58,100 nucleotides of DNA from Campylobacterota bacterium (GCA_034717975.1 JAYEMF010000012.1:1-58100), one strand, 5' to 3'. Positions 1 to 58,100 are shown, counted from the stretch's first letter. Translations and numbers: made by a program. Notes: generated from the letters alone by a model not told the origin.

Positions 1-251
1 ACATTTTCGTGATCAAGGCAGGTTCTTGTCAGCGTAGCAGGGCTACGGTGGCAAGGTTCTAACGCAGACTCACGGACATGTATGTAACGCCCTTCGGGAG
101 GGCAAATAAGGCACAATCTTCCGTCCTGAAATCTCTTGCACCCAAGGGCAGGCTTCGCACATTTACCTATGGGTAGTCCTTCAAGATTTTAAAACGAAAT
201 CTTGCACCTTCTTTGCCCTCTGATGATATCCAGGGTTTTTAGAGGTGCCCT
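1..251. mobile_element. MITE-like non-autonomous element, right part, ending in a 32-bp TIR (220-251); inserted in intI
   Basis: 220-251 CTGATGATATCCAGGGTTTTTAGAGGTGCCCT is the exact reverse complement of 57978-58009. Bases 1-83 are identical to 58018-58100. Internal hairpins, no transposase ORF. Confidence 0.85.
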
Positions 252-552
252 TTTGTTCTTGTGCGCGTAACGCTTGAATATTTTGGCTTTTCATATCAAT
301 ACCAAGTACTTCACCATACAAAAAGACTATGGCATAAAAAGCTTGGTTTTGCGTAGTGGAAGATACTTTTCTATCAACAGCCAAGTGTGTTAAAAACTGT
401 TCAATCTCTTCTTTTCCCATTTCAATTGGATGGCGTTTATTATGAAAGAATATAAACTGTTTTATCCACCCTACATAGCTCTTTTCTGTCTTCATACTAT
501 AATGTTTGAGCCTGATTTTGTCACGCGTGATATCGAGTAATTTCTTTTTCAT
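252..552 (-). pseudogene. intI: Integron integrase, N-terminal fragment truncated by the MITE
   Basis: MKKKLLDITRDKIRLKHYSMKTEKSYVGWIKQFIFFHNKRHP...VSSTTQNQAFYAIVFLY is a typical IntI N-terminal domain, divergent from a cassette array. The ORF tail KGTSKNPGYHQ... is translated from the TIR. No catalytic domain in the window. Confidence 0.9.
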
Positions 553-789
553 CTTGTTTCTCCAATTAGAACAAAACGTTCATTAAGTTTCAAAATAAGA
601 CTTAGCAACACATTTACGTTCAAATAAGTCTATTTTCAATACTTAGCACACATTCTTACCATGAGGAAGTTACTCCTAAAACATCAAAAAAATTAAAAAT
701 ATGACATCATGCAATAATCTAACGTATTTATACATCATTTCACAAATATGACTAAGTTAAGTCTTAAGTCTTAGTTGTATAAAATGTGT

Positions 790-810
790 ACTAATAAAGA
801 GTTATAGGTA
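790..810 (+). other. attI recombination site (crossover G|TT at 801/802)
   Basis: CTAATAAAGAG|TTATAGGTA resembles the attI1 core CTAAAACAAAG|TT. GTTATAGGTA (801-810) is the exact reverse complement of TACCTATAAC (1401-1410) at the start of attC1. Confidence 0.8.
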
Positions 811-827
811 CTAACAAAAGGAAAGAA

Positions 828-1409
828 ATGAAATGCTCGATATTTATTGCCCCGAGTGTAGATGGGTATATTGCAACTGAAGATGGAGGAGTCCATTGGT
901 TAGAAACAGCTGGAAAATCTGTATCAGACATTGATGAAAAATCTGAGTTAATGCAACATTTCAACAATTCTATGCCAAATTATATGCAGAATATTGATTG
1001 TATGATCATAGGACGAAAACTAATGGAAGTACTTTCAAGTTTTAACTTGACTCCTGAACAATGGCCCTATGGAAACACCAAAATTATTGCGCTCAGTAGT
1101 ACAATAAAAGAAGCACCCGAAAATTTACAAGAACATGTCGAAATATATTCCGGATCAATCCCTTTGTTAATATCTAAACTAGAGAATGAAGGATACAAAC
1201 ATGCTTATGTTGATGGTGGCACGACTATCACATCTTTTTTTAATCTAGAACTTATTAATGAAATGACATTGACACTAGCCCCTGTGTTATTAGGGTCAGG
1301 AATACCACTTTTTGGTAAATTGTCAAAACAGATAAAACTTGAAGATGCAAAAGCAACGACATTTCCAAATAATTTTGTTGAACTTAAATACAGCGTAAAA
1401 TACCTATAA
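828..1409 (+). CDS. Cassette 1: dihydrofolate reductase-fold / RibD C-terminal domain protein
   Basis: Motifs IAPSVDGYIA, IIGRK, YVDGG..TI, APVLLGSGIPLF. Stop codon lies in the attC1 R'' box. Confidence 0.85.
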   Translation: MKCSIFIAPSVDGYIATEDGGVHWLETAGKSVSDIDEKSELMQHFNNSMPNYMQNIDCMIIGRKLMEVLSSFNLTPEQWPYGNTKIIALSSTIKEAPENLQEHVEIYSGSIPLLISKLENEGYKHAYVDGGTTITSFFNLELINEMTLTLAPVLLGSGIPLFGKLSKQIKLEDAKATTFPNNFVELKYSVKYL

Positions 1410-1474
1410 CAATTACGAGGAGAGAAATCTGTGACCGCGAGCGGATCACAGATTCCTCACGACGAACGTTAGCG
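1404..1474 (+). repeat. attC1
   Basis: CTATAAC...GAGGAGAGAAATCTGTGACCGCGAGCGGATCACAGATTCCTC...GTTAGCG; imperfect palindrome with TAAC/GTTA ends. Confidence 0.9.
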
Positions 1475-1484
1475 AAGGAAAAAT

Positions 1485-1784
1485 ATGAATGCCGGAACTG
1501 TATGGTTATTAATTTTTGCTCTTGTTCAATTTACACCTACATTGATAATTATATTTTCTGGTCGTGTTCAAGGTCGAAAGAAGTTTTATTGGATACTTAT
1601 CTCACTTCTGTCGGTAATAATCTTGCCAATAATTACAATTACTGTCTATGATGGTAATTTTTCTCAACATAGTATGATTGGTTATAGCTACTTGTATGTA
1701 TGGCTAGTGTTATGTGTATTCATATTAATGAATTCAAGAAAAAGACTACAAAAAGCTAACAACACTTTGGAGAGAAATAGTTGA
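1485..1784 (+). CDS. Cassette 2: small hypothetical membrane protein (~3 TM)
   Basis: 99 aa, hydrophobic, SD AAGGA; reads into attC2. Confidence 0.75.
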   Translation: MNAGTVWLLIFALVQFTPTLIIIFSGRVQGRKKFYWILISLLSVIILPIITITVYDGNFSQHSMIGYSYLYVWLVLCVFILMNSRKRLQKANNTLERNS

Positions 1785-1823
1785 CCCTGCGGGCACAACT
1801 ATTTCTCTAGTCCAACGTTATGT
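1754..1823 (+). repeat. attC2
   Basis: AGCTAAC...GGAGAGAAATAGTTGACCCTGCGGGCACAACTATTTCTC...GTTATGT. R'' complements the cassette-2 start GTTAGC. Confidence 0.92.
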
Positions 1824-1854
1824 TCAAAAGCAATATTTACTTCAATAAAATTCA

Positions 1855-1863
1855 TGTTATAAT
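1855..1863 (+). promoter_or_regulatory. Cassette-3 internal promoter (extended -10)
   Basis: TGTTATAAT upstream of SD AAAGGA and ATG 1891. Confidence 0.6.
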
Positions 1864-1890
1864 TATCCGTATAATTAAAAGGATAATATT

Positions 1891-2184
1891 ATGGTGGCAT
1901 ATACACAAAATGAGTTAGCATCTGCAACTGAAATATCCAAACAATTTGGAGAATACATCTCTAAAGTTAAAAATGGACTTGTTGATAAAATTGGTGTACT
2001 AAAAAACAATAAGCTAAATGCAGTAATTTTATCTGTGGAAGAGTACGAAAAAATGTCAGAAGCAATGGATTTACTTGAAGATATGACAATATATGAAGAG
2101 ATTAAAGATAGATTAGCTTCAAATCAAAAACTACTTGATGGTGATGATGTATTGAAAAAGCATGGGCTATCTTTAGATGTATGA
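1891..2184 (+). CDS. Cassette 3: Phd/YefM-type antitoxin
   Basis: SATEISKQFGEYI...VLKNNKLNAVILSVEEYE pattern; overlaps the downstream toxin. Confidence 0.85.
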   Translation: MVAYTQNELASATEISKQFGEYISKVKNGLVDKIGVLKNNKLNAVILSVEEYEKMSEAMDLLEDMTIYEEIKDRLASNQKLLDGDDVLKKHGLSLDV

Positions 2185-2488
2185 CTTCAAGTTTTATGAA
2201 GAAGCAGAAAAAGACCTTTCAAAGTTAAACAACAGTGTGAAAAAACTTTTTGTTAAAAAATTAACTCAAATTATCAACAATCCGGAAATTGGTAAAGATT
2301 TAGGTAATAAAAACAACTTAAACCTATCAGGTCTAAAAAAAGTATATTTTGACAACAAAAGATATAGAATAGTTTATGAGATCAAAAACAAAGAAATTAT
2401 TATTCATATCATTGCTATTGGCAAAAGAGACAATATGAAAGTTTACAAAGAAGCAAGCCAAAGACACGAAAAACATAACAAGTCGTAG
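2177..2488 (+). CDS. Cassette 3: RelE/StbE-family toxin
   Basis: FYEEAEKDLSKL...RYRIVYEI...IHIIAIGKR..VY. Confidence 0.88.
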   Translation: MYDFKFYEEAEKDLSKLNNSVKKLFVKKLTQIINNPEIGKDLGNKNNLNLSGLKKVYFDNKRYRIVYEIKNKEIIIHIIAIGKRDNMKVYKEASQRHEKHNKS

Positions 2489-2542
2489 CACACCAATAAA
2501 AACCCTCGAACGAGTTTTTATTAGTGAACTCAACCGTTAACT
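2473..2542 (+). repeat. attC3
   Basis: ACATAAC...CACCAATAAAAACCCTCGAACGAGTTTTTATTAGTG...GTTAACT. R'' complements the cassette-3 start GTTATGTT. Confidence 0.9.
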
Positions 2543-2563
2543 TTCAAAACAACATTTCACAAC

Positions 2564-2593
2564 TTGACAAAAAAAGTATAATTAAAGTATAAT
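2564..2593 (+). promoter_or_regulatory. Cassette-4 internal sigma70 promoter
   Basis: TTGACA (2564-2569), 18 nt, TATAAT (2588-2593); repeated AAAGTATAATT motif. Confidence 0.7.
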
Positions 2594-2618
2594 TTCTATA
2601 TCTACAAAAAGGACTTGC

Positions 2619-2891
2619 ATGAAATTTGAGTATGATAAGAATAAGAGCCAAATCAATAAAGAAAAACATGGTATTGATTTTGTTGATGCACAAAATTTAT
2701 GGCAAGATGAAAATGCACTTATTGTTCCAGCAAATATTATTGATGATGAAACAAGGTATGCCTTAATTTCAACATTTAAAGATAAATGCTATACAGCTAT
2801 CTTTACACTTAGAGATGAAATATATCGAATAATTAGTGTTAGAAGATGCAGAAAAAATGAGGAAAGAAATTATGAAAAAAATAACAGCTGA
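2619..2891 (+). CDS. Cassette 4: BrnT-family toxin
   Basis: MKFEYDKNKSQINKEKHGIDF...ETRY...YRIISVRR. Confidence 0.9.
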   Translation: MKFEYDKNKSQINKEKHGIDFVDAQNLWQDENALIVPANIIDDETRYALISTFKDKCYTAIFTLRDEIYRIISVRRCRKNEERNYEKNNS

Positions 2892-3141
2892 AGAATTTGA
2901 TACTAAATTTGATACTGGTGAAGATATTGATGAATACTTAGATTTCTCAACAGCAATTAGACTTAAAGATGTCCAGAAACTCAAAACAGAAACAAAAAAA
3001 GTAAATGTAGATTTTCCTGAATGGGTAATTGAATCTTTAGATAAAGAAGCAAAAAAAATAGGTGTAACAAGACAATCAATTATTAAAGTTTGGATAGCTG
3101 AACGACTTAAAGAAGAGGCTGGACATCTACAAGTAAGTTAA
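2872..3141 (+). CDS. Cassette 4: BrnA/CopG-type (RHH) antitoxin
   Basis: MKKITAEEFDTKFDTGEDI...VNVDFPEWVIESLDKEAKKIGVTRQSIIKVWIAERL; ATG at 2872 preferred over the track start. Confidence 0.88.
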   Translation: MKKITAEEFDTKFDTGEDIDEYLDFSTAIRLKDVQKLKTETKKVNVDFPEWVIESLDKEAKKIGVTRQSIIKVWIAERLKEEAGHLQVS

Positions 3142-3203
3142 CAAAACCTCGTAGCCAATAAATGCCCTAACGGACATTTATTAGCTAGAGTCAACCGTTA
3201 TCT
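3136..3203 (+). repeat. attC4
   Basis: AGTTAAC...AGCCAATAAATGCCCTAACGGACATTTATTAGCT...GTTATCT. R'' complements the cassette-4 start GTTAACTT. Confidence 0.9.
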
Positions 3204-3217
3204 CCAAAACCACAAAC

Positions 3218-3246
3218 TTGAAAAAAGTTAACATTTATGTTAACAT
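3218..3246 (+). promoter_or_regulatory. Cassette-5 promoter with palindromic operator
   Basis: TTGAAA-17-TAACAT overlapped by the inverted repeat GTTAACAT-TT-ATGTTAAC (3227-3244). Confidence 0.6.
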
Positions 3247-3252
3247 GTACAT

Positions 3253-3585
3253 ATGAAAGAAATAAAATTCTATCAAAAGTCCTATTGAGAATTTTCTTAA
3301 TTCACTCTCTGCAAAAGAAGCTCAAAAAGTAACTTGGGTTTTGAGTTTGATTGAAGAGATGGAAACAATTTCCACAAAATTTTACAAAAAGCTTAGCAAT
3401 AGTGATGGGATTATAGAAGTTAGAGCTCAAATTGGTAAAAAAATTTTAGACTTTTAGGTTTTGAAGATGAAGGGACATTTGTAGTACTCACAAATGGCTT
3501 TAAAAAGAAAGATCAAAAAGTTCCAAAATCTGAAATATCATTGGCTCAGCAAAGAAAAGATGAATATCTTTCAAGAGGAGATTAA
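3253..3585 (+). pseudogene. Cassette 5: HigB/RelE (Gp49-like) toxin with two frameshifts
   Basis: Reconstructed MKEIKFYQ / KSPIENFLNSLSAKEAQKVTWVLSLIEE...[12 protein letters not shown] / [46 protein letters not shown]. Frame breaks near 3276 and 3440. Confidence 0.82.
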
Positions 3586-3586
3586 T

Positions 3587-3862
3587 ATGAGTGACTTAAA
3601 AAAATATATCGCAAAAAGAAAAAAAATCGATTCAGAGTTTGCAGAAAACTTTGAAGATGGCTATCAGGAGTTTAAAATTGGTGAAATGTTAAAACAAGCT
3701 AGAAAAGAGACTGGACTAACACAAGAAGAGATGGCTCTTGCAATGCACACAAAAAAGTCTGCAATATCAAGAATAGAAAATCATGCTCAAGATATTAGAC
3801 TTTCAACACTTCAAGCTTTTGCTCACATTATGGGTAAAGAACTAAAGATACAACTCGTTTAA
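3587..3862 (+). CDS. Cassette 5: HigA-like XRE HTH antitoxin
   Basis: MSDLKKYI...LKQARKETGLTQEEMA..MHTKKSAISRIEN; SD GAGGAG before ATG 3587. Confidence 0.88.
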   Translation: MSDLKKYIAKRKKIDSEFAENFEDGYQEFKIGEMLKQARKETGLTQEEMALAMHTKKSAISRIENHAQDIRLSTLQAFAHIMGKELKIQLV

Positions 3863-3864
3863 AG

Positions 3865-3934
3865 AGATAACAAATCATCGAAGAGAAATAGTTGACCCTG
3901 TGGGTACAACTATTTCTCAAGTCCAACGTTAACC
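3865..3934 (+). repeat. attC5
   Basis: AGATAAC...GAGAAATAGTTGACCCTGTGGGTACAACTATTTCTC...GTTAACC; near-identical to attC2. Confidence 0.92.
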
Positions 3935-3939
3935 ACTAG

Positions 3940-3968
3940 TTGATTTTTTTCAACCATTGTAGTATAAT
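3940..3968 (+). promoter_or_regulatory. Cassette-6 internal promoter
   Basis: TTGATT-17-TATAAT upstream of SD AAAGGA. Confidence 0.65.
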
Positions 3969-3989
3969 GTAGATACAAAAGGATACAAT

Positions 3990-4217
3990 ATGAAAAAAGC
4001 AATCAATATCCGTATGGATGAAACCCTATTAACAGATTTAGACTCTTATGCTCATGAGTTAGAGCGTTCACGGACTTATATTATAGAAAAAGCTGTAAGC
4101 ACTTATTTTGATACTTTAGATGAAATGATTTCAGACAAAAGAATAGATGAACTAAAAACTGGAAAAACTGAAGTTTATTCCCTTGAAGAAGTGGCACAAA
4201 AACTTGGTCTTAATTAA
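3990..4217 (+). CDS. Cassette 6: ribbon-helix-helix (RelB/CopG-like) antitoxin
   Basis: KAINIRMDETLL..LD..A..LERSRTYIIEKAV...YSLEEVAQKLGL. Confidence 0.85.
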   Translation: MKKAINIRMDETLLTDLDSYAHELERSRTYIIEKAVSTYFDTLDEMISDKRIDELKTGKTEVYSLEEVAQKLGLN

Positions 4218-4468
4218 TGTTCAAAATCATCATTCCAAAAGCCACTTTTAAAGAATTAGAAAAAATTTATATTGAAAATCAAAAACTTATTTATTCAAAA
4301 ATACAAGACTTAGAGAAGGGTTTATTTACAACGGATAAAGCCCTTAAAGGCAAATACAAGGGGAAGTTCCGAAAAAAAGCGGGTGATTATAGAATTGTTT
4401 ATTTAAAAGAAAATGATATTTTAGTTATCACTTTAATCAGAATAGCTCACAGAAAAGAGGTTTATTAA
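4217..4468 (+). CDS. Cassette 6: RelE/StbE-family toxin
   Basis: KALKGKYKGKFRKKAGDYRIVY...IRIAHRKEVY; TAATG coupling with the antitoxin. Confidence 0.9.
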   Translation: MFKIIIPKATFKELEKIYIENQKLIYSKIQDLEKGLFTTDKALKGKYKGKFRKKAGDYRIVYLKENDILVITLIRIAHRKEVY

Positions 4469-4470
4469 AG

Positions 4471-4540
4471 GTCTAACAAAACCTAGGAGAGAAATAAGTA
4501 ACCCTGGCGGGCGACTTATTTCTCAAGTCAACCGTTAAAC
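4471..4540 (+). repeat. attC6 (last of the array)
   Basis: GTCTAAC...GGAGAGAAATAAGTAACCCTGGCGGGCGACTTATTTCTC...GTTAAAC. Confidence 0.88.
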
Positions 4541-4691
4541 ACAAAGAAATAAATTGCATGAAATAATGAAGAGCATCATATTCAAACGATCAGTATGAAA
4601 AAACAGTCGATCAAAGCGAGTATGTATTTCTCTCAATGTATGGCCGACCGTTTAACGATGGTATAATTAAAGCAACGATAAGAGGGGGAAT

Positions 4692-5216
4692 ATGATGAGA
4701 AAAATTGCATTGATAATGCTGTTTGCCCTGCCGCTGTTTTCGGCTTCATTGAGCCTGAAAGAGGGTTTTGTAGCGGCACATACCGAAATGATGATAGATA
4801 GCACGATCAATCCGATGGCAACGCATCTGGAAGCCAATATTGAGATGGATGATGATGTGACGTCGCTTCGTGGCGAGGTCACTGTCCGTGTAACTGATTT
4901 CAGCAGTGACAATTCGGATCGTGATAAAAATATGCATGAGACCCTTGAAAGTGATAAGTTTGAAGAAATGGCTTACACGATTAGATCGGTCACGAAGCAG
5001 GAGTCTGGCTACAGTATCGATGGAGAGTTGAACCTTCATGGCGTAAGCAAGCCTGTTTCGTTTGAAGGCGAGATCACCAATAGTGAAGAGAGTGTCGTTA
5101 TCCGTGCAAAATCGTCGGTATTGTTTAGTGACTTTGATGTTGAAATGCCCTGCCTGCTCTTTATGTGTGTGCGTGATCAGGTAGATCTCTTCATCAAAGC
5201 TTCATTCAGCAAGTAA
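4692..5216 (+). CDS. YceI-family periplasmic lipid/polyisoprenoid-binding protein
   Basis: Signal peptide; SDNSDRDKNM, GELNLHGVSKPV motifs. Confidence 0.85.
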   Translation: MMRKIALIMLFALPLFSASLSLKEGFVAAHTEMMIDSTINPMATHLEANIEMDDDVTSLRGEVTVRVTDFSSDNSDRDKNMHETLESDKFEEMAYTIRSVTKQESGYSIDGELNLHGVSKPVSFEGEITNSEESVVIRAKSSVLFSDFDVEMPCLLFMCVRDQVDLFIKASFSK

Positions 5217-5228
5217 CGAGGTCATCTG

Positions 5229-6008
5229 TTGAGCGAAATTATCATTATTGCGGCGATTGCTCTTTTCGCCGTACCGGGCATTCTATTCTACCTTTTTCAG
5301 CATAAGCTCGTTTTCTCTCCCCATTACTATCCTGAACGCTCTTTTTTTGCTGAGCACTCGCATGATTATCAATTTCAGCATCTGAATGTGGCTCCCGGCA
5401 TTGAGCTGGAAGGGATGATCTACTCGCCGGAGAATCCGATAGCGACGGTGCTCTATTTTGGCGGGAAAGAACAAGACAGTGTTGCTCTCATCGGCAGGCT
5501 TTCGCAGCGCTATCCGAATGTACGTATTGTCACTTTTAACTATAGGGGTTATGGCCATAGCGGTGGAGTGCCGAGAGAAGCTGCTATTCTTTCTGATGCG
5601 GTGGTTCTGTATGACTGGGCAGTACAAAGATATGACTATGTCGATCTTTTAGGCTACAGTCTTGGCTCATCGGTCGCTGCTTATGTTGCATCAAAACGAA
5701 CAACAGGAAAGGTAGTGCTGGTGTCGGCTTTTGATTCGGCGCAGGCACTGATAAAGTCAAAGACGGCTATTGTTCCCAAGTGGCTGATCCGATGCCGGTT
5801 TGAGACGGTTGAGTATGTAAAGGATATCAGTGCGCCTGTCTATCTTTTCACTACGCTGGATGATGAAGTCATTCCGCAATCGCATATCGATAACCTGCGC
5901 GGACATATCCGGAATTTAGCCGGAACTAAAGCATTCAGCGGGTACAATCACGCCCAATTACTCTTCAGTGACGAACTGAAAATTGAACTGGACAAGGTGT
6001 TCTCGTAG
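5229..6008 (+). CDS. Alpha/beta hydrolase
   Basis: YRGYGHSGG and the GYSLG nucleophile elbow; N-terminal anchor. Confidence 0.85.
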   Translation: MSEIIIIAAIALFAVPGILFYLFQHKLVFSPHYYPERSFFAEHSHDYQFQHLNVAPGIELEGMIYSPENPIATVLYFGGKEQDSVALIGRLSQRYPNVRIVTFNYRGYGHSGGVPREAAILSDAVVLYDWAVQRYDYVDLLGYSLGSSVAAYVASKRTTGKVVLVSAFDSAQALIKSKTAIVPKWLIRCRFETVEYVKDISAPVYLFTTLDDEVIPQSHIDNLRGHIRNLAGTKAFSGYNHAQLLFSDELKIELDKVFS

Positions 6009-6961
6009 TGAGCAAAGAAGCAGTCATATTACTTAATATGGGAGGGCCGAACAACCTCAATGAGGTAGAACTATTCCTCAAAAATATGTTCAATGATCCG
6101 AATATCCTTACTATGAAAAGCTCCCTGCTGCGCAAGTTTGTAGCAGGTATGATCACTTTTAGCAGGGCAGAGTCATCTCAGGAGATATATCGGGCGTTGG
6201 GTGGAAAGTCACCTATTGTCGATCATACGAAAAAACTGGTGGCTACCCTGCAGGAAAAGCTTTCAGATGAGAGTGTCATCGTTGATTTTGCCATGCGCTA
6301 TACCCCGCCATTTGCTACGGATGTCCTTGAAAGCCTGAAAGAGCATGATATCTCCAAGATCTACCTGATCCCTCTTTATCCTCAGTATTCAAGTACGACC
6401 ACGAAATCATCACTGGAAGATTTTGAAGAGGCCTTTCATAAAAGCGGCATCGATGCCGTGCTGGTCGAGATCAAACACTATTATGAGAACACGCTTTACA
6501 ATAAGGCCGTTCTTGAACGGATAAAAGAGCAGGTTGAGGGGAGAGAGCTTCATGATTTGGATCTCATCTTTTCGGCACATGGGCTGCCTCAGAAGATCGT
6601 CGAGAGCGGTGATCCCTATCAGCGCCACATCGAGCGTCATGTCGATATCCTCAAGGCGATACTCAAAGAGGAGGGGATGGAGTTCCATGATGTGCATCTG
6701 GCCTATCAGTCCAAAGTCGGGCCGATGAAATGGCTTGAACCGGGTCTGGAAGAGAAGCTTGGCAAGATACGCAATCGCGGTGTCGTGATCTATCCTATCG
6801 CCTTCACCATCGATAACTCCGAAACAGACTTTGAACTTGGTGTTGAGTATAAAGAGATCGCCGATGAGATGGGTTTTAAAGAGTACCTGGTCTGCGAATG
6901 TGTAAATGACCATCCGCTTTTCGTGGATGCCCTTACGGATATCTATCATAAGATGAAATAA
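6008..6961 (+). CDS. hemH: Ferrochelatase
   Basis: LLNMGGP, PLYPQYSSTTT, FSAHGLP, YQSKVGPMKWLEP. Confidence 0.95.
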   Translation: MSKEAVILLNMGGPNNLNEVELFLKNMFNDPNILTMKSSLLRKFVAGMITFSRAESSQEIYRALGGKSPIVDHTKKLVATLQEKLSDESVIVDFAMRYTPPFATDVLESLKEHDISKIYLIPLYPQYSSTTTKSSLEDFEEAFHKSGIDAVLVEIKHYYENTLYNKAVLERIKEQVEGRELHDLDLIFSAHGLPQKIVESGDPYQRHIERHVDILKAILKEEGMEFHDVHLAYQSKVGPMKWLEPGLEEKLGKIRNRGVVIYPIAFTIDNSETDFELGVEYKEIADEMGFKEYLVCECVNDHPLFVDALTDIYHKMK

Positions 6962-6988
6962 AAAACGTTACGTTCTTTAAAATCAGTT

Positions 6989-9487
6989 TTAATGAACGCT
7001 AACTATTTTTTCTCTTCCAAATACTTTAAACATCACGATCAGTTTTGGCAGTAGCAGCAGGTCTGTGATCAGTGCCATTACCATAGCGACAACGGTCAAC
7101 AGCCCGAAATAGATAGTCGGAATAAACGGTGAGAGTACCAGTACGAAAAAGCCGATGGTGATGGCAGCTGATGTGTAGCTCATCGCGTAACCGATACTCG
7201 CATGTGAACGTGTCATAGCCTTATCGTAATTACTGGTTATTATAAACTCTTTTCTGAAACGGTAGAGATAGTGGATGGTGTTGTCAACCGCGATACCGAT
7301 ACTGATGGAGGCGATGGTGATTGTCATCATATCCAGAGGGATATCGAGCCATCCCATCAATCCAAAGACCATACCGATCGGCACAAGATTGGCGATGATC
7401 GCAACCAGGCCGATGCGAAGTGATCTGAAAATAAACCAGAACATTGCGAAGAGCAGGGCTACCATAGCGCCAAGGGTAAGGATCTGTGATGAAAAAAGAC
7501 TCTGCAGCATATTGTTGTAAAGTACCATGATCCCGGAGAGATGGACCTGCTCAGCCGGAATTCCTACTTTCTCTGTCAGTTCCGTACGAATCTTCTTTAG
7601 CAGAGCATTACGGCGGAGGGTTGGATCAGAGTCGACAATACGGACATAAAAACGGGCCTGATCATTTTCAATGCTCAGGTAAGGTTTGATGATAAGCTGT
7701 GCAAACTCCTCAGGCAGTTCGTTATAGAGCAGGGCAAGTTCGAAGTTGTCCAGATCTTCGCCCTCATTAAGAGTTCTCCCGACACGTTGCATCGTTCCGA
7801 ATGAGAGTACCTTACCAACTTCCGGGAGCGATTCCAGGTAGGCATGAACTTTTTCAATGCGCTGCATCTTATCCGAAGTAAACCAATACTGATCCTGCTG
7901 CTCTTCTTCTTTAAATTCAGCTTCAAAGTCATCAAAAAACTCATCCTCTTCCTCAGCTGGAACATCAGCTTCATCTTCTTGGGTATCAGGAAAGTCGATG
8001 GTGATATCCAACGGTGTCGTTCCACCGAGTTGCCGATCTATCATGGCCATGCCCTGATAGATCTCGGTGGATGATTTGAAATAACTGATGAAACTGTTTT
8101 CAACACGCAGTTTGGACGATCCGGAGAGACTGAAAAAGATCATCAGCAGAGTCGCAATAAAGATGGCTGTACCGTAACGTCTGACAATAGTGGCAAAAAC
8201 TGCAGTGACCGAGAACTCTCTTTCAAACTGGGTGTTGGGTTTGGTGCGCTTCACAAGGATCAAGAGCGTCGGGAAGAGCAGGTAGGTCAAAATAAATGAG
8301 ATGATCAGTCCGGCACTCATCATCCAGCCGAGGTTGATAACAGGCAAAATACCGGAGAGGATGAGTGATAAAAAACCGGCAATAGTTGTAATAACTGCAA
8401 AAAAGGTAGGTTTGTACATCGAGAGGACGGCATGCAGGACAAGATCTGCCTGCTTCTGTCTGGAGAAGTTTTTCGCCAGTTCACGGTAACGTACGATCAG
8501 GTGGATGATAATCGAGGTGGTGAGGATCAGCTGCAAGGAGACATAATTGGATGAGATGACCGTGACTTCCCAGCCAAAGAAGCCCAACAGACCAATGGAA
8601 GCGATAAGGGATGCCGTCAGAATAAGGACAGGGATAAAGACCCACTGCAGTTGTCTGAAAACGATCCATAAGACAGTAATGAGCAGAAGCAGGACGATGA
8701 TACCATAGCTTTTGAGATCATTTTTGACAAAGGTGACCATATCGTCCGCGATCATATTGACACCGCCGAGGAACATCTCTGCATCGTCACGATGCTCCTG
8801 CATAATGGAACGGATTTTTATGATATTGCCATGCTGGGCATCCCGGACACCATCACGGTAATCTCGGAATGTTTTCTGAATGGTGGCATATTGATGCTTC
8901 TGTGCAAGTGTCAGATTGCCATCTTTGGCGCGTTGACGCAGGCCATTGCGTTCATCCAGCATCTGGTAGTAGCGCTCATCATATTGAAGATTGATCATAA
9001 TGGCAGTTGATCTGAAGTCGGCACTTACAAGATTTTCCAAATAGAGTGGATTTGTAATAAACTCATTTTTTGCCATCGATATATTGACATCATTGGATGC
9101 AATGGTCGGGATATTGTCAACCAGATCCTTGACAGGTTTAGGAGGACTTTGCAGAAGAGGAACATTTAGAATTGATGTAACGGATTCTACCTGTGGAAGT
9201 TTTTCAAGTTTTTCGCTGAGACGGCGGATGTTCTCTCTTGTCGTCTCCGAGAGCAGGGGTGTATGCGGTGTGTAGGCGATGACAAGAAAATCGGGACTCC
9301 GATAGCGTTTATTGACCACTCTGCTGTAGGCGAGGTCTTTGTCATCTTCAAGCAACAGGGTCTCTGCCGAAGCATCTATCTTGAGGCTGAATGCCTGATA
9401 ACCAAGAAAACTGATCAAAAAGAAGATCAGCAGAAGGACGGTTTTAGGATAGACAAAGACGACGTTACGGTAAAATTTTTTCAGCAT
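6989..9487 (-). CDS. MMPL/RND-family transporter
   Basis: 832 aa, two-repeat TM architecture, SIGIAVDNTIHY motif. Confidence 0.88.
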   Translation of the reverse strand: MLKKFYRNVVFVYPKTVLLLIFFLISFLGYQAFSLKIDASAETLLLEDDKDLAYSRVVNKRYRSPDFLVIAYTPHTPLLSETTRENIRRLSEKLEKLPQVESVTSILNVPLLQSPPKPVKDLVDNIPTIASNDVNISMAKNEFITNPLYLENLVSADFRSTAIMINLQYDERYYQMLDERNGLRQRAKDGNLTLAQKHQYATIQKTFRDYRDGVRDAQHGNIIKIRSIMQEHRDDAEMFLGGVNMIADDMVTFVKNDLKSYGIIVLLLLITVLWIVFRQLQWVFIPVLILTASLIASIGLLGFFGWEVTVISSNYVSLQLILTTSIIIHLIVRYRELAKNFSRQKQADLVLHAVLSMYKPTFFAVITTIAGFLSLILSGILPVINLGWMMSAGLIISFILTYLLFPTLLILVKRTKPNTQFEREFSVTAVFATIVRRYGTAIFIATLLMIFFSLSGSSKLRVENSFISYFKSSTEIYQGMAMIDRQLGGTTPLDITIDFPDTQEDEADVPAEEEDEFFDDFEAEFKEEEQQDQYWFTSDKMQRIEKVHAYLESLPEVGKVLSFGTMQRVGRTLNEGEDLDNFELALLYNELPEEFAQLIIKPYLSIENDQARFYVRIVDSDPTLRRNALLKKIRTELTEKVGIPAEQVHLSGIMVLYNNMLQSLFSSQILTLGAMVALLFAMFWFIFRSLRIGLVAIIANLVPIGMVFGLMGWLDIPLDMMTITIASISIGIAVDNTIHYLYRFRKEFIITSNYDKAMTRSHASIGYAMSYTSAAITIGFFVLVLSPFIPTIYFGLLTVVAMVMALITDLLLLPKLIVMFKVFGREKIVSVH

Positions 9488-57977: not shown

Positions 57978-58100
57978 AGGGCACCTCTAAAAACCCTGGA
58001 TATCATCAGCGTTACATACATTTTCGTGATCAAGGCAGGTTCTTGTCAGCGTAGCAGGGCTACGGTGGCAAGGTTCTAACGCAGACTCACGGACATGTAT
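57978..58100. mobile_element. MITE-like element, left part, starting with a 32-bp TIR (57978-58009)
   Basis: AGGGCACCTCTAAAAACCCTGGATATCATCAG; the last 83 nt duplicate positions 1-83. Confidence 0.85.

Follow-up and report, generated by a model that had tools for sequence, protein, structure and literature searches.

Why should a short integron array consist mostly of toxin-antitoxin (TA) cassettes? The array that raises this question lies near one end of a 58,100-nt stretch of DNA from a Campylobacterota bacterium (GCA_034717975.1, JAYEMF010000012.1:1-58100; hereafter the window), which is the whole of contig C12 of the host genome G000 (2.52 Mb in 149 contigs). It comprises an attI site and six cassettes, each with an attC site of its own; the two cassettes nearest attI are single genes without a promoter, and the four distal ones are TA modules (Table 1). 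An earlier note, made from this sequence alone, had taken the array to be either the residue of a larger one in which only addictive cassettes survived or a modular anti-phage or stress island, and had proposed it as a candidate for an undescribed system. Our analysis favors the residue: the locus is probably a decaying chromosomal integron in which addictive, self-promoted TA cassettes were preferentially retained, and it is best classed as an attC-site cluster that lacks an integron-integrase (CALIN) with an intI pseudogene. This history, in which the retention itself is what we infer from the pattern, fits the dead intI, a decayed higB, the distal position of every TA cassette and the share of about 13% that such cassettes have in relatives. 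The broken intI, the broken higB and an intact paralogous intI elsewhere in the genome had escaped the earlier note.

Table 1. Features of the integron locus, in window coordinates (nt)
Feature	Position	Strand	Remarks
MITE-like element, right-hand 252-253 nt	1..252	.	~292 nt in all, ~31-nt terminal inverted repeats, inserted in intI
intI remnant, N-terminal part	253..552	-	residues 1-102; Pfam Phage_int_SAM_4, 9.7e-30
intI-attI spacer	553..800	.	degenerate palindrome copy at ~690-715; -10-like TATAAA at 778-783, candidate Pc
attI	734..807	+	crossover G801|T802; matches the attI region of G019 at 80% over 70 nt
Cassette 1	802..1468	+	RibD_C/dihydrofolate-reductase-like gene 828-1409, 193 aa, Pfam RibD_C 5.3e-13; 27-nt leader; attC1 1404-1474
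Cassette 2	1469..1817	+	predicted membrane protein, 99 aa, 1485-1784; 17-nt leader; attC2 1754-1823
Cassette 3	1818..2536	+	Phd/YefM antitoxin 1891-2184; RelE/ParE toxin 2177-2488; promoter-like site 1836-1863; attC3 2473-2542
Cassette 4	2537..3197	+	BrnT toxin 2619-2891; BrnA antitoxin 2872-3141; consensus promoter 2564-2593; attC4 3136-3203
Cassette 5	3198..3928	+	higB pseudogene 3253-3585; intact HigA (HTH_3), 3560 or 3587 to 3862; attC5 3865-3934
Cassette 6	3929..4534	+	RHH (RelB-like) antitoxin 3990-4217; RelE/ParE toxin 4217-4468; promoter-like site 3940-3968; attC6 4471-4540
Array-chromosome junction	4541..4691	.	before yceI; GC changes from 31% (array) to 46% (flank)
yceI (chromosomal gene)	4692..5216		

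Recombination sites and the integrase gene

The six attC sites, 68-71 nt long with the top strand on the plus strand, lie within 3.2 kb. In all six the R'' box ends in AAC and the R' box starts with GTT, and each folds into an imperfect hairpin, with bottom-strand DNA energies of -9.6 to -16.4 kcal/mol. Alignment of the bottom strands gave 23 invariant columns and a consensus structure of 20 pairs, nine of them with compensatory changes, which runs from an R-box helix through an unpaired spacer and a long stem to a variable loop. Between R box and stem, the bottom strand of every site has 10 nt in its 3' arm and 8 nt in its 5' arm, a 2-nt asymmetry that we take to be of the kind owed to extrahelical bases in canonical attC. 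Pairwise identity within the array is 53-83%.

A covariance model built from these six sites (R1) scores them at 62-86 bits (attC1, 65 bits; attC2, 81.2 bits). A model is bound to fit the sites on which it was trained, so that R1 has to be judged in other genomes. Of 61 genomes searched (a number that includes G000), 31 have R1 sites; within the same family the figure is 24 of 36, and no genome has more than 25. Among 80 retrieved loci with an intact IntI, from records titled Sulfurovum, Sulfurimonas, Sulfurospirillum, Arcobacter and Nitratifractor, all 35 matches at E<=0.01 lie upstream of intI and on the strand expected for a divergent array; the attC clusters of the sampled arrays are small, with 2-10 attC each. 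The attI and the six attC that the earlier note had described are thus borne out by the folds, by this check of position and strand, and by the attI alignment given below. An Rfam scan of positions 1-7000 at E<=1 matched nothing; an attC model independent of ours is thus not to be had from Rfam, and neither a known RNA nor a known intron accounts for the GC-rich first 250 nt. A seventh, degenerate attC considered in the gap between attC6 and yceI (4598-4656) was rejected, R1 with filters off giving 6.6 bits and E=0.93.

On the attI side, we aligned 25 regions upstream of intI, from the window and from 24 other Campylobacterota. Conservation (AATAAAtAGTT) ends exactly at the GTT at window positions 801-803: the conserved block, ..TATAATGT..AATAAATAGTT, is followed by a complete loss of similarity, the pattern expected of a shared attI before differing first cassettes. 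The TATAAA of the spacer, absent from our promoter scan list, aligns with a conserved TATAAT in the relatives and is a candidate for the cassette promoter (Pc), a predicted function. Between intI and attI, most of the 24 aligned integrons also conserve a palindrome (ATATGTCAAATTGACATAT-like), degenerate in the window, which may be an operator for the regulation of intI or Pc.

Each cassette start had been said in the earlier note to complement the R'' box of its own attC. Uninterrupted complementarity is 10, 6, 8, 8, 8 and 4 nt for cassettes 1 to 6, against 4-6 nt in the 30 pairings of starts with R'' boxes not their own; the claim holds for five of the six cassettes and fails for cassette 6, whose match had already been called imperfect.

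Of intI itself, the window holds a piece that matches only the N-terminal SAM-like domain, and the 123-codon open reading frame (ORF) listed there (181-552) runs on into a miniature inverted-repeat transposable element (MITE). Positions 2-95 of the model TIGR02249 are matched in the window and positions 93-166 at the end of another contig, C34. The gene is found intact on contig C95, where it encodes an IntI of 321 aa (TIGR02249 408 bits, cut-off 265); with this paralog as query, residues 2-102 (77% identical) are found in the window and residues 102-171 (71%) at C34:20362-20580. Residues 172-321 were not found with the same query, the next best match having E=0.3. As judged from these searches, the C-terminal half of intI, with most of its catalytic residues, is gone.

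The two pieces of the remnant are held apart by the MITE, whose left end is C34:20573-20611; the last 87 bases of C34 are identical to the first 87 of the window. The element has 114 blastn matches on 42 of the 149 contigs, 33 of them at contig ends, and a GC content of 48%, vs 34% in the intI fragment. It explains why a contig break falls inside intI, and it is probably a main cause of the fragmented assembly. Contig C12 stops in a copy at both ends (1-252 and 57978-58100). A 3-nt target-site duplication at the MITE would leave intI in frame.

How, then, is the locus to be classed? Of the parts of a complete integron, attI, attC and paired cassette starts (in five of six cassettes) are found, but the intI next to the array is the remnant split by the MITE. 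Sedentary chromosomal integrons are described as having >10 attC (10.1101/2022.08.03.502626) or >19, or as occurring in all strains (PMC4889954), with highly similar attC; the size and the attC identity of the present array fall outside this class. Two or more clustered attC without a functional intI, as found here, define a CALIN. Published CALINs with an intI pseudogene resemble the locus in this, in the intI remnant nearby and in the intact intI elsewhere in the genome. Most CALINs are reported to have <6 attC, and intI pseudogenes to lie near just 15 of 279 (PMC4889954). The present case differs from them in that the remnant still adjoins a conserved attI, which makes an origin by integrase decay directly visible.

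An array that has lost its own integrase would still be working if the intact IntI on C95 acted in trans on its attI and attC. The completeness of that protein and its 71-77% identity to the remnant speak for such service, and attC of the same model are found on a third contig, C11, where R1 has its only three further full-length matches in the genome (67.5, 29 and 22 bits). Mobilization of CALIN cassettes in trans has been discussed as a possibility (PMC4889954). Further, there are public metagenome contigs that fit the window up to attC borders (1756, 1820-1823, 2541, 3138, 3199) and then continue into other DNA. Contigs from three runs of one study, possibly of the source sample and hence not independent, agree with parts of the array to within 0-2 differences, and in runs X1 and X3 there are contigs that span attC6 into yceI. 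Because they end at attC sites, neither the order of cassettes 2 to 6 nor excision is confirmed by them, and no contig with at least 30 letters on both sides of a joint shows a precise cassette deletion. Two joints, 1788->3908 and 1792->4517, were rejected as excision evidence, having sides of 21-23 nt with extra letters between them; they probably stem from other attC copies. The decay of intI and of higB (see below) suggests a low turnover, and beside the intact intI no R1-type attC was found at E<=1. By eye, an R''-like ACCTAAC near C95:245-256 complements the attI-side GTTAGGT, without a convincing hairpin. On balance, we regard an array served in trans as less likely than not.

Several observations at these sites stand on their own. 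One contig of run X3 (depth 6.2) reportedly leaves the window at 3332, which lies in higB, and after 32 other letters resumes at 684, upstream of attI. The C95 region (1-3065; locus L040) is a second integron platform with an intact IntI. Genes on its attI side encode a TIR-like protein of 136 aa (PADLOC TIR effector, 1.8e-7) and a Sel1-repeat protein; there, too, an 87-aa gene precedes that of a RelE toxin of 110 aa. The three sites on C11 form a third cluster (56674-58700; locus L039). One of its cassettes codes for a PhzF-like protein that the contig end truncates, and GIY-YIG and Fic/DOC proteins are encoded as well; beside the last attC of this cluster, 70 nt of GC-rich sequence are 91% identical to C95:70-139.

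Cassette contents and mobility

What do the cassettes carry? Protein families were assigned with Pfam and NCBIfam, and defense families with PADLOC-DB 2.0. All cassette genes lie on the plus strand, and the array is poorer in GC than its flank (30.9% vs 45.7%). The protein of cassette 2 matched nothing in Pfam, NCBIfam or PADLOC, and neither cassette 1 nor cassette 2 has a homolog in any retrieved locus.

Cassettes 3 to 6 had been read as Phd-RelE, BrnT-BrnA, HigB-HigA and RHH-RelE pairs, and Pfam and NCBIfam uphold these families, with the amendment that higB is broken. For cassette 3, the Pfam matches are PhdYeFM (2.7e-8) and ParE_toxin (4.9e-10), with the NCBIfam model phd_fam above its cut-off and RelE_StbE marginal (23.9 bits, cut-off 27.9). 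Cassette 4 has BrnT at 2.1e-22 in Pfam and the BrnA equivalog of NCBIfam at 113 bits (cut-off 60). In cassette 6, ParE_toxin (3.5e-7) and RHH_1 (4.8e-4; marginal at 20.4 bits, cut-off 20.5) are matched in Pfam, and RelE_StbE (28.1 bits, cut-off 27.9) in NCBIfam. The toxin profiles of these three cassettes are covered nearly end to end, and both genes of each pair are intact and adjacent or overlapping. We therefore regard cassettes 3, 4 and 6 as type II TA modules, the toxicity of which is predicted. All four TA cassettes have leaders of 57-83 nt with a promoter-like site in each; in cassette 4 this is TTGACA-18-TATAAT, 12/12 with the consensus, and in cassette 3 it scores 10/12 with a TG.

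The toxin gene of cassette 5 is a different matter. The intact HigB of G014, a genome of another genus, matches the window in two frames, with 46/55 and 41/47 identical residues (84% and 87%); an early stop lies before the first match, and higB has two frame breaks in all. The Gp49 model covers positions 50-89 only, in a 48-codon open frame. HigA, by comparison, shares 88 of 100 residues with its G014 homolog. The contig of run X1 has 14 extra bases near the 5' end of higB, but the A-run of the window at the second break, which is hence not an error peculiar to the assembly; in run X8, copies that are less closely related are longer by one A at that place. By these comparisons higB is a pseudogene, and cassette 5 is without an intact toxin gene.

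All four TA cassette types recur, as judged by their sequences, in other Campylobacterota arrays. In G017, cassette 4 has a counterpart with 88.5% DNA identity over 676 nt, reaching from the preceding GTT region to the cassette's own attC, and BrnT and BrnA are 89% and 94% identical to the G017 proteins; in G059, which belongs to another family, the match is 78% over 626 nt. G014 carries counterparts of cassette 5 (83% over 751 nt) and cassette 3 (67% in DNA), and cassette 6 has matches of 67-69% in G005 and G041. A cassette beside the intact intI of L083, a locus in a Sulfurovum metagenome-assembled genome (MAG), encodes RHH and RelE proteins that share 96% and 80% identity with their counterparts in cassette 6. 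The FAD oxidoreductase that flanks the array is 46-51% identical between these genomes (46% vs G017). In every case the neighbors of the shared cassette differ. The homology is thus cassette-sized, in agreement with the earlier note, which had taken the cassettes for independent mobile units; a block shared by relatives without variation, which would have spoken against it, is the opposite of what we find.

The chromosomal surroundings are glyS and the gene for this FAD-dependent oxidoreductase on the left (contig C34) and yceI, a hydrolase gene and hemH on the right. Of 37 genomes, 31 have an ortholog of the oxidoreductase and nine have YceI. In G001, G011 and G019 these flank genes do not lie on the contigs or at the positions that bear attC matches, so that the integron of these genomes is not at this chromosomal site; relatives offer no shared insertion site and no ancestral array for comparison.

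Toxin-antitoxin share and position

Is a TA content of four in six unusual? In a census of relatives, we took the intervals between R1 matches and scanned their ORFs of at least 60 aa with Pfam (E<=1e-3). A first set of 21 loci gave 67 intervals, 21 of them without a known attI-side border; 130 of 166 ORFs were scanned and 36 below 60 aa dropped. Six of these intervals hold TA genes, five clearly (MazEF, BrnT, two ParE and HigBA) and one possibly (a DUF4160/DUF2442 pair). A second set of nine intI-adjacent arrays gave 28 intervals, six with TA genes; a tenth locus, L068, a single 6.7-kb interval with plasmid-like genes, was excluded. The share in relatives is therefore 12/95 (13%), and the two-thirds noted earlier for the window stand above it (Fisher one-sided, p=0.005). 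Some TA cassettes of the relatives sit just past the last detected attC. Four of the 10 matches to ParE, BrnT and Gp49 toxin models in the genome fall in the 3.7-kb array, a count biased by the choice of families present here.

Position tells a similar story. In ten intI-adjacent arrays, the window included, the attI-proximal slot holds no TA interval (0/10; hypergeometric p=0.015), and TA cassettes are distal in the window and in two further loci, L117 and L083. L083 (2300-7000) is TA-dominated as well, with three clear TA intervals of four: an attI-proximal AAA_15/AAA_21 ATPase cassette comes first, and after it BrnTA, ParE next to a partner of 62 aa, RHH-ParE and a weak HigB-like pair. Two of its TA pairs are 69 nt apart, a gap that suggests an attC missed by R1.

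The TA-rich make-up could be an accident of sampling from a Campylobacterota pool in which TA cassettes are common, with no differential retention. They are indeed frequent and widely shared in that pool, the sampled arrays are small, and L083 reached its composition despite an intact intI. However, a pool share of 12/95 gives a binomial chance of 0.003 of drawing four or more TA cassettes in six, and their absence from the attI-proximal slots, together with their distal position in three loci, points to an effect of position or age. We consider such an accident unlikely.

Preferential retention would account for both features. New cassettes would enter at attI, and cassettes would be lost through attC x attC excision or through deletion. 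The loss of a TA cassette would free the stable toxin from its labile antitoxin and so remove the cell that lost it; TA cassettes would thereby gather distally and outlast other cassettes as well as the integrase. The integrase would decay after this distal build-up, and the TA genes would by now be decaying too: with higB frameshifted while higA is intact, decay appears to have reached them.

Several points weigh against this account. The nearest genomes are just 66-68% identical in a flanking protein, the contig with that gene bears no attC match, and no longer ancestral array is seen from which preferential retention could be read directly. The TA shares are rough, as the census rests on a model made from the window's own attC and is biased to similar sites; counts are small and the arrays phylogenetically related. 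L083, TA-rich with an intact intI, shows that TA cassettes can dominate an array without the loss of its integrase. Promoter-like sites are no commoner across the region than in shuffled sequence (21 vs 20.0 +/- 4.2), so that it is their placement in the TA leaders that argues for function. Finally, the order of cassettes 2 to 6 is supported by the present assembly alone.

Known systems and the biology of the array

Could the four TA cassettes instead have been assembled by integron recombination as an anti-phage (abortive infection) or stress island and kept for defense? Arrays of the relatives do hold defense-like cassettes, among them GmrSD, Mrr_cat, DUF4238, GIY-YIG, an AAA_15/AAA_21 ATPase, RVT_1 and a DNA methylase with HNH. 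In loci L041-L060 and L064-L123, DUF4238 occurs three times and GIY-YIG several times, the RVT_1 protein has 575 aa, and RhuM and a PFIN fertility-inhibition domain are also found. In this the relatives resemble the sedentary chromosomal integrons proposed as anti-phage stores (10.1101/2024.07.02.601686), and a review holds that TA cassettes may guard against invading elements (PMC8618304). The array in the window is different: PADLOC is silent on eight of its nine cassette proteins and matched HigA with generic HTH or control-protein models only. One of the four toxins is a pseudogene, the modules are ordinary RelE/ParE, BrnT and HigB without an added sensor or effector domain, and a phage-related context is absent. 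The island proposed in the earlier note thus finds no positive evidence here, and we regard it as very unlikely.

Preferential retention of TA cassettes, by contrast, has close precedents. In large Vibrio arrays, according to the earlier note, TA cassettes are a small minority. Vibrio cholerae N16961 is said to harbor 19 TA systems (10.1101/2022.08.03.502626); like the cassettes described here, those of its superintegron are two-gene type II modules, each with its own attC and its own promoter in a largely promoterless array, and their proposed role is to punish cassette loss (10.1101/2022.08.03.502626; PMC6557892). The present array differs in its six cassettes, its ~70-nt attC of 53-83% identity, its TA share, its dead integrase and its phylum. 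An analysis of arrays with >10 attC only reports TA cassettes to be enriched in chromosomal integrons, with the death of cells that have lost cassettes as their proposed effect (10.1101/2022.08.03.502626), and TA modules are counted among the commonest reported cassette functions (PMC8618304). Treponema-type cassettes from the human oral metagenome include Phd with a plasmid-stabilization toxin, BrnT-BrnA, and RelE/ParE with an XRE antitoxin; their promoter activity was measured, and 12 of 23 promoter-active cassettes were TA (PMC6557892). These were recovered by PCR without array context and differ in host phylum and attC family. For integrons of Campylobacterota, our literature search turned up survey-level mentions only, such as a table of IntegronFinder matches in Sulfurimonas autotrophica and Sulfurovum sp. 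NBC37-1 (PMC10295459).

The locus thus reveals no new kind of system; its TA cassettes are of a familiar type and are unusual in how large a part of the array they make up: self-promoted TA cassettes, their enrichment and CALINs with intI pseudogenes have all been published, and the candidacy for an undescribed system falls away. What it does show is an integron in decay, its recombinase killed by a MITE and a deletion, one toxin frameshifted, and TA cassettes making up most of the remainder. Integrons with ~70-nt attC are widespread in sulfur-oxidizing Campylobacterota, and their TA cassettes circulate between families and tend to sit away from attI. Tentatively, and with rather more reserve than for the locus itself, we suggest a wider scenario in which cosmopolitan, self-promoted TA cassettes cross families, ratchet distally in small Campylobacterota arrays and outlive both other cassettes and the integrase, leaving TA-dominated fossil arrays. 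As the published enrichment analysis is confined to arrays with more than ten attC, a census of small arrays could widen the test of TA retention. If the scenario is true, such fossil arrays, small and from outside Vibrio, would supply evidence from nature for TA cassettes policing cassette loss.

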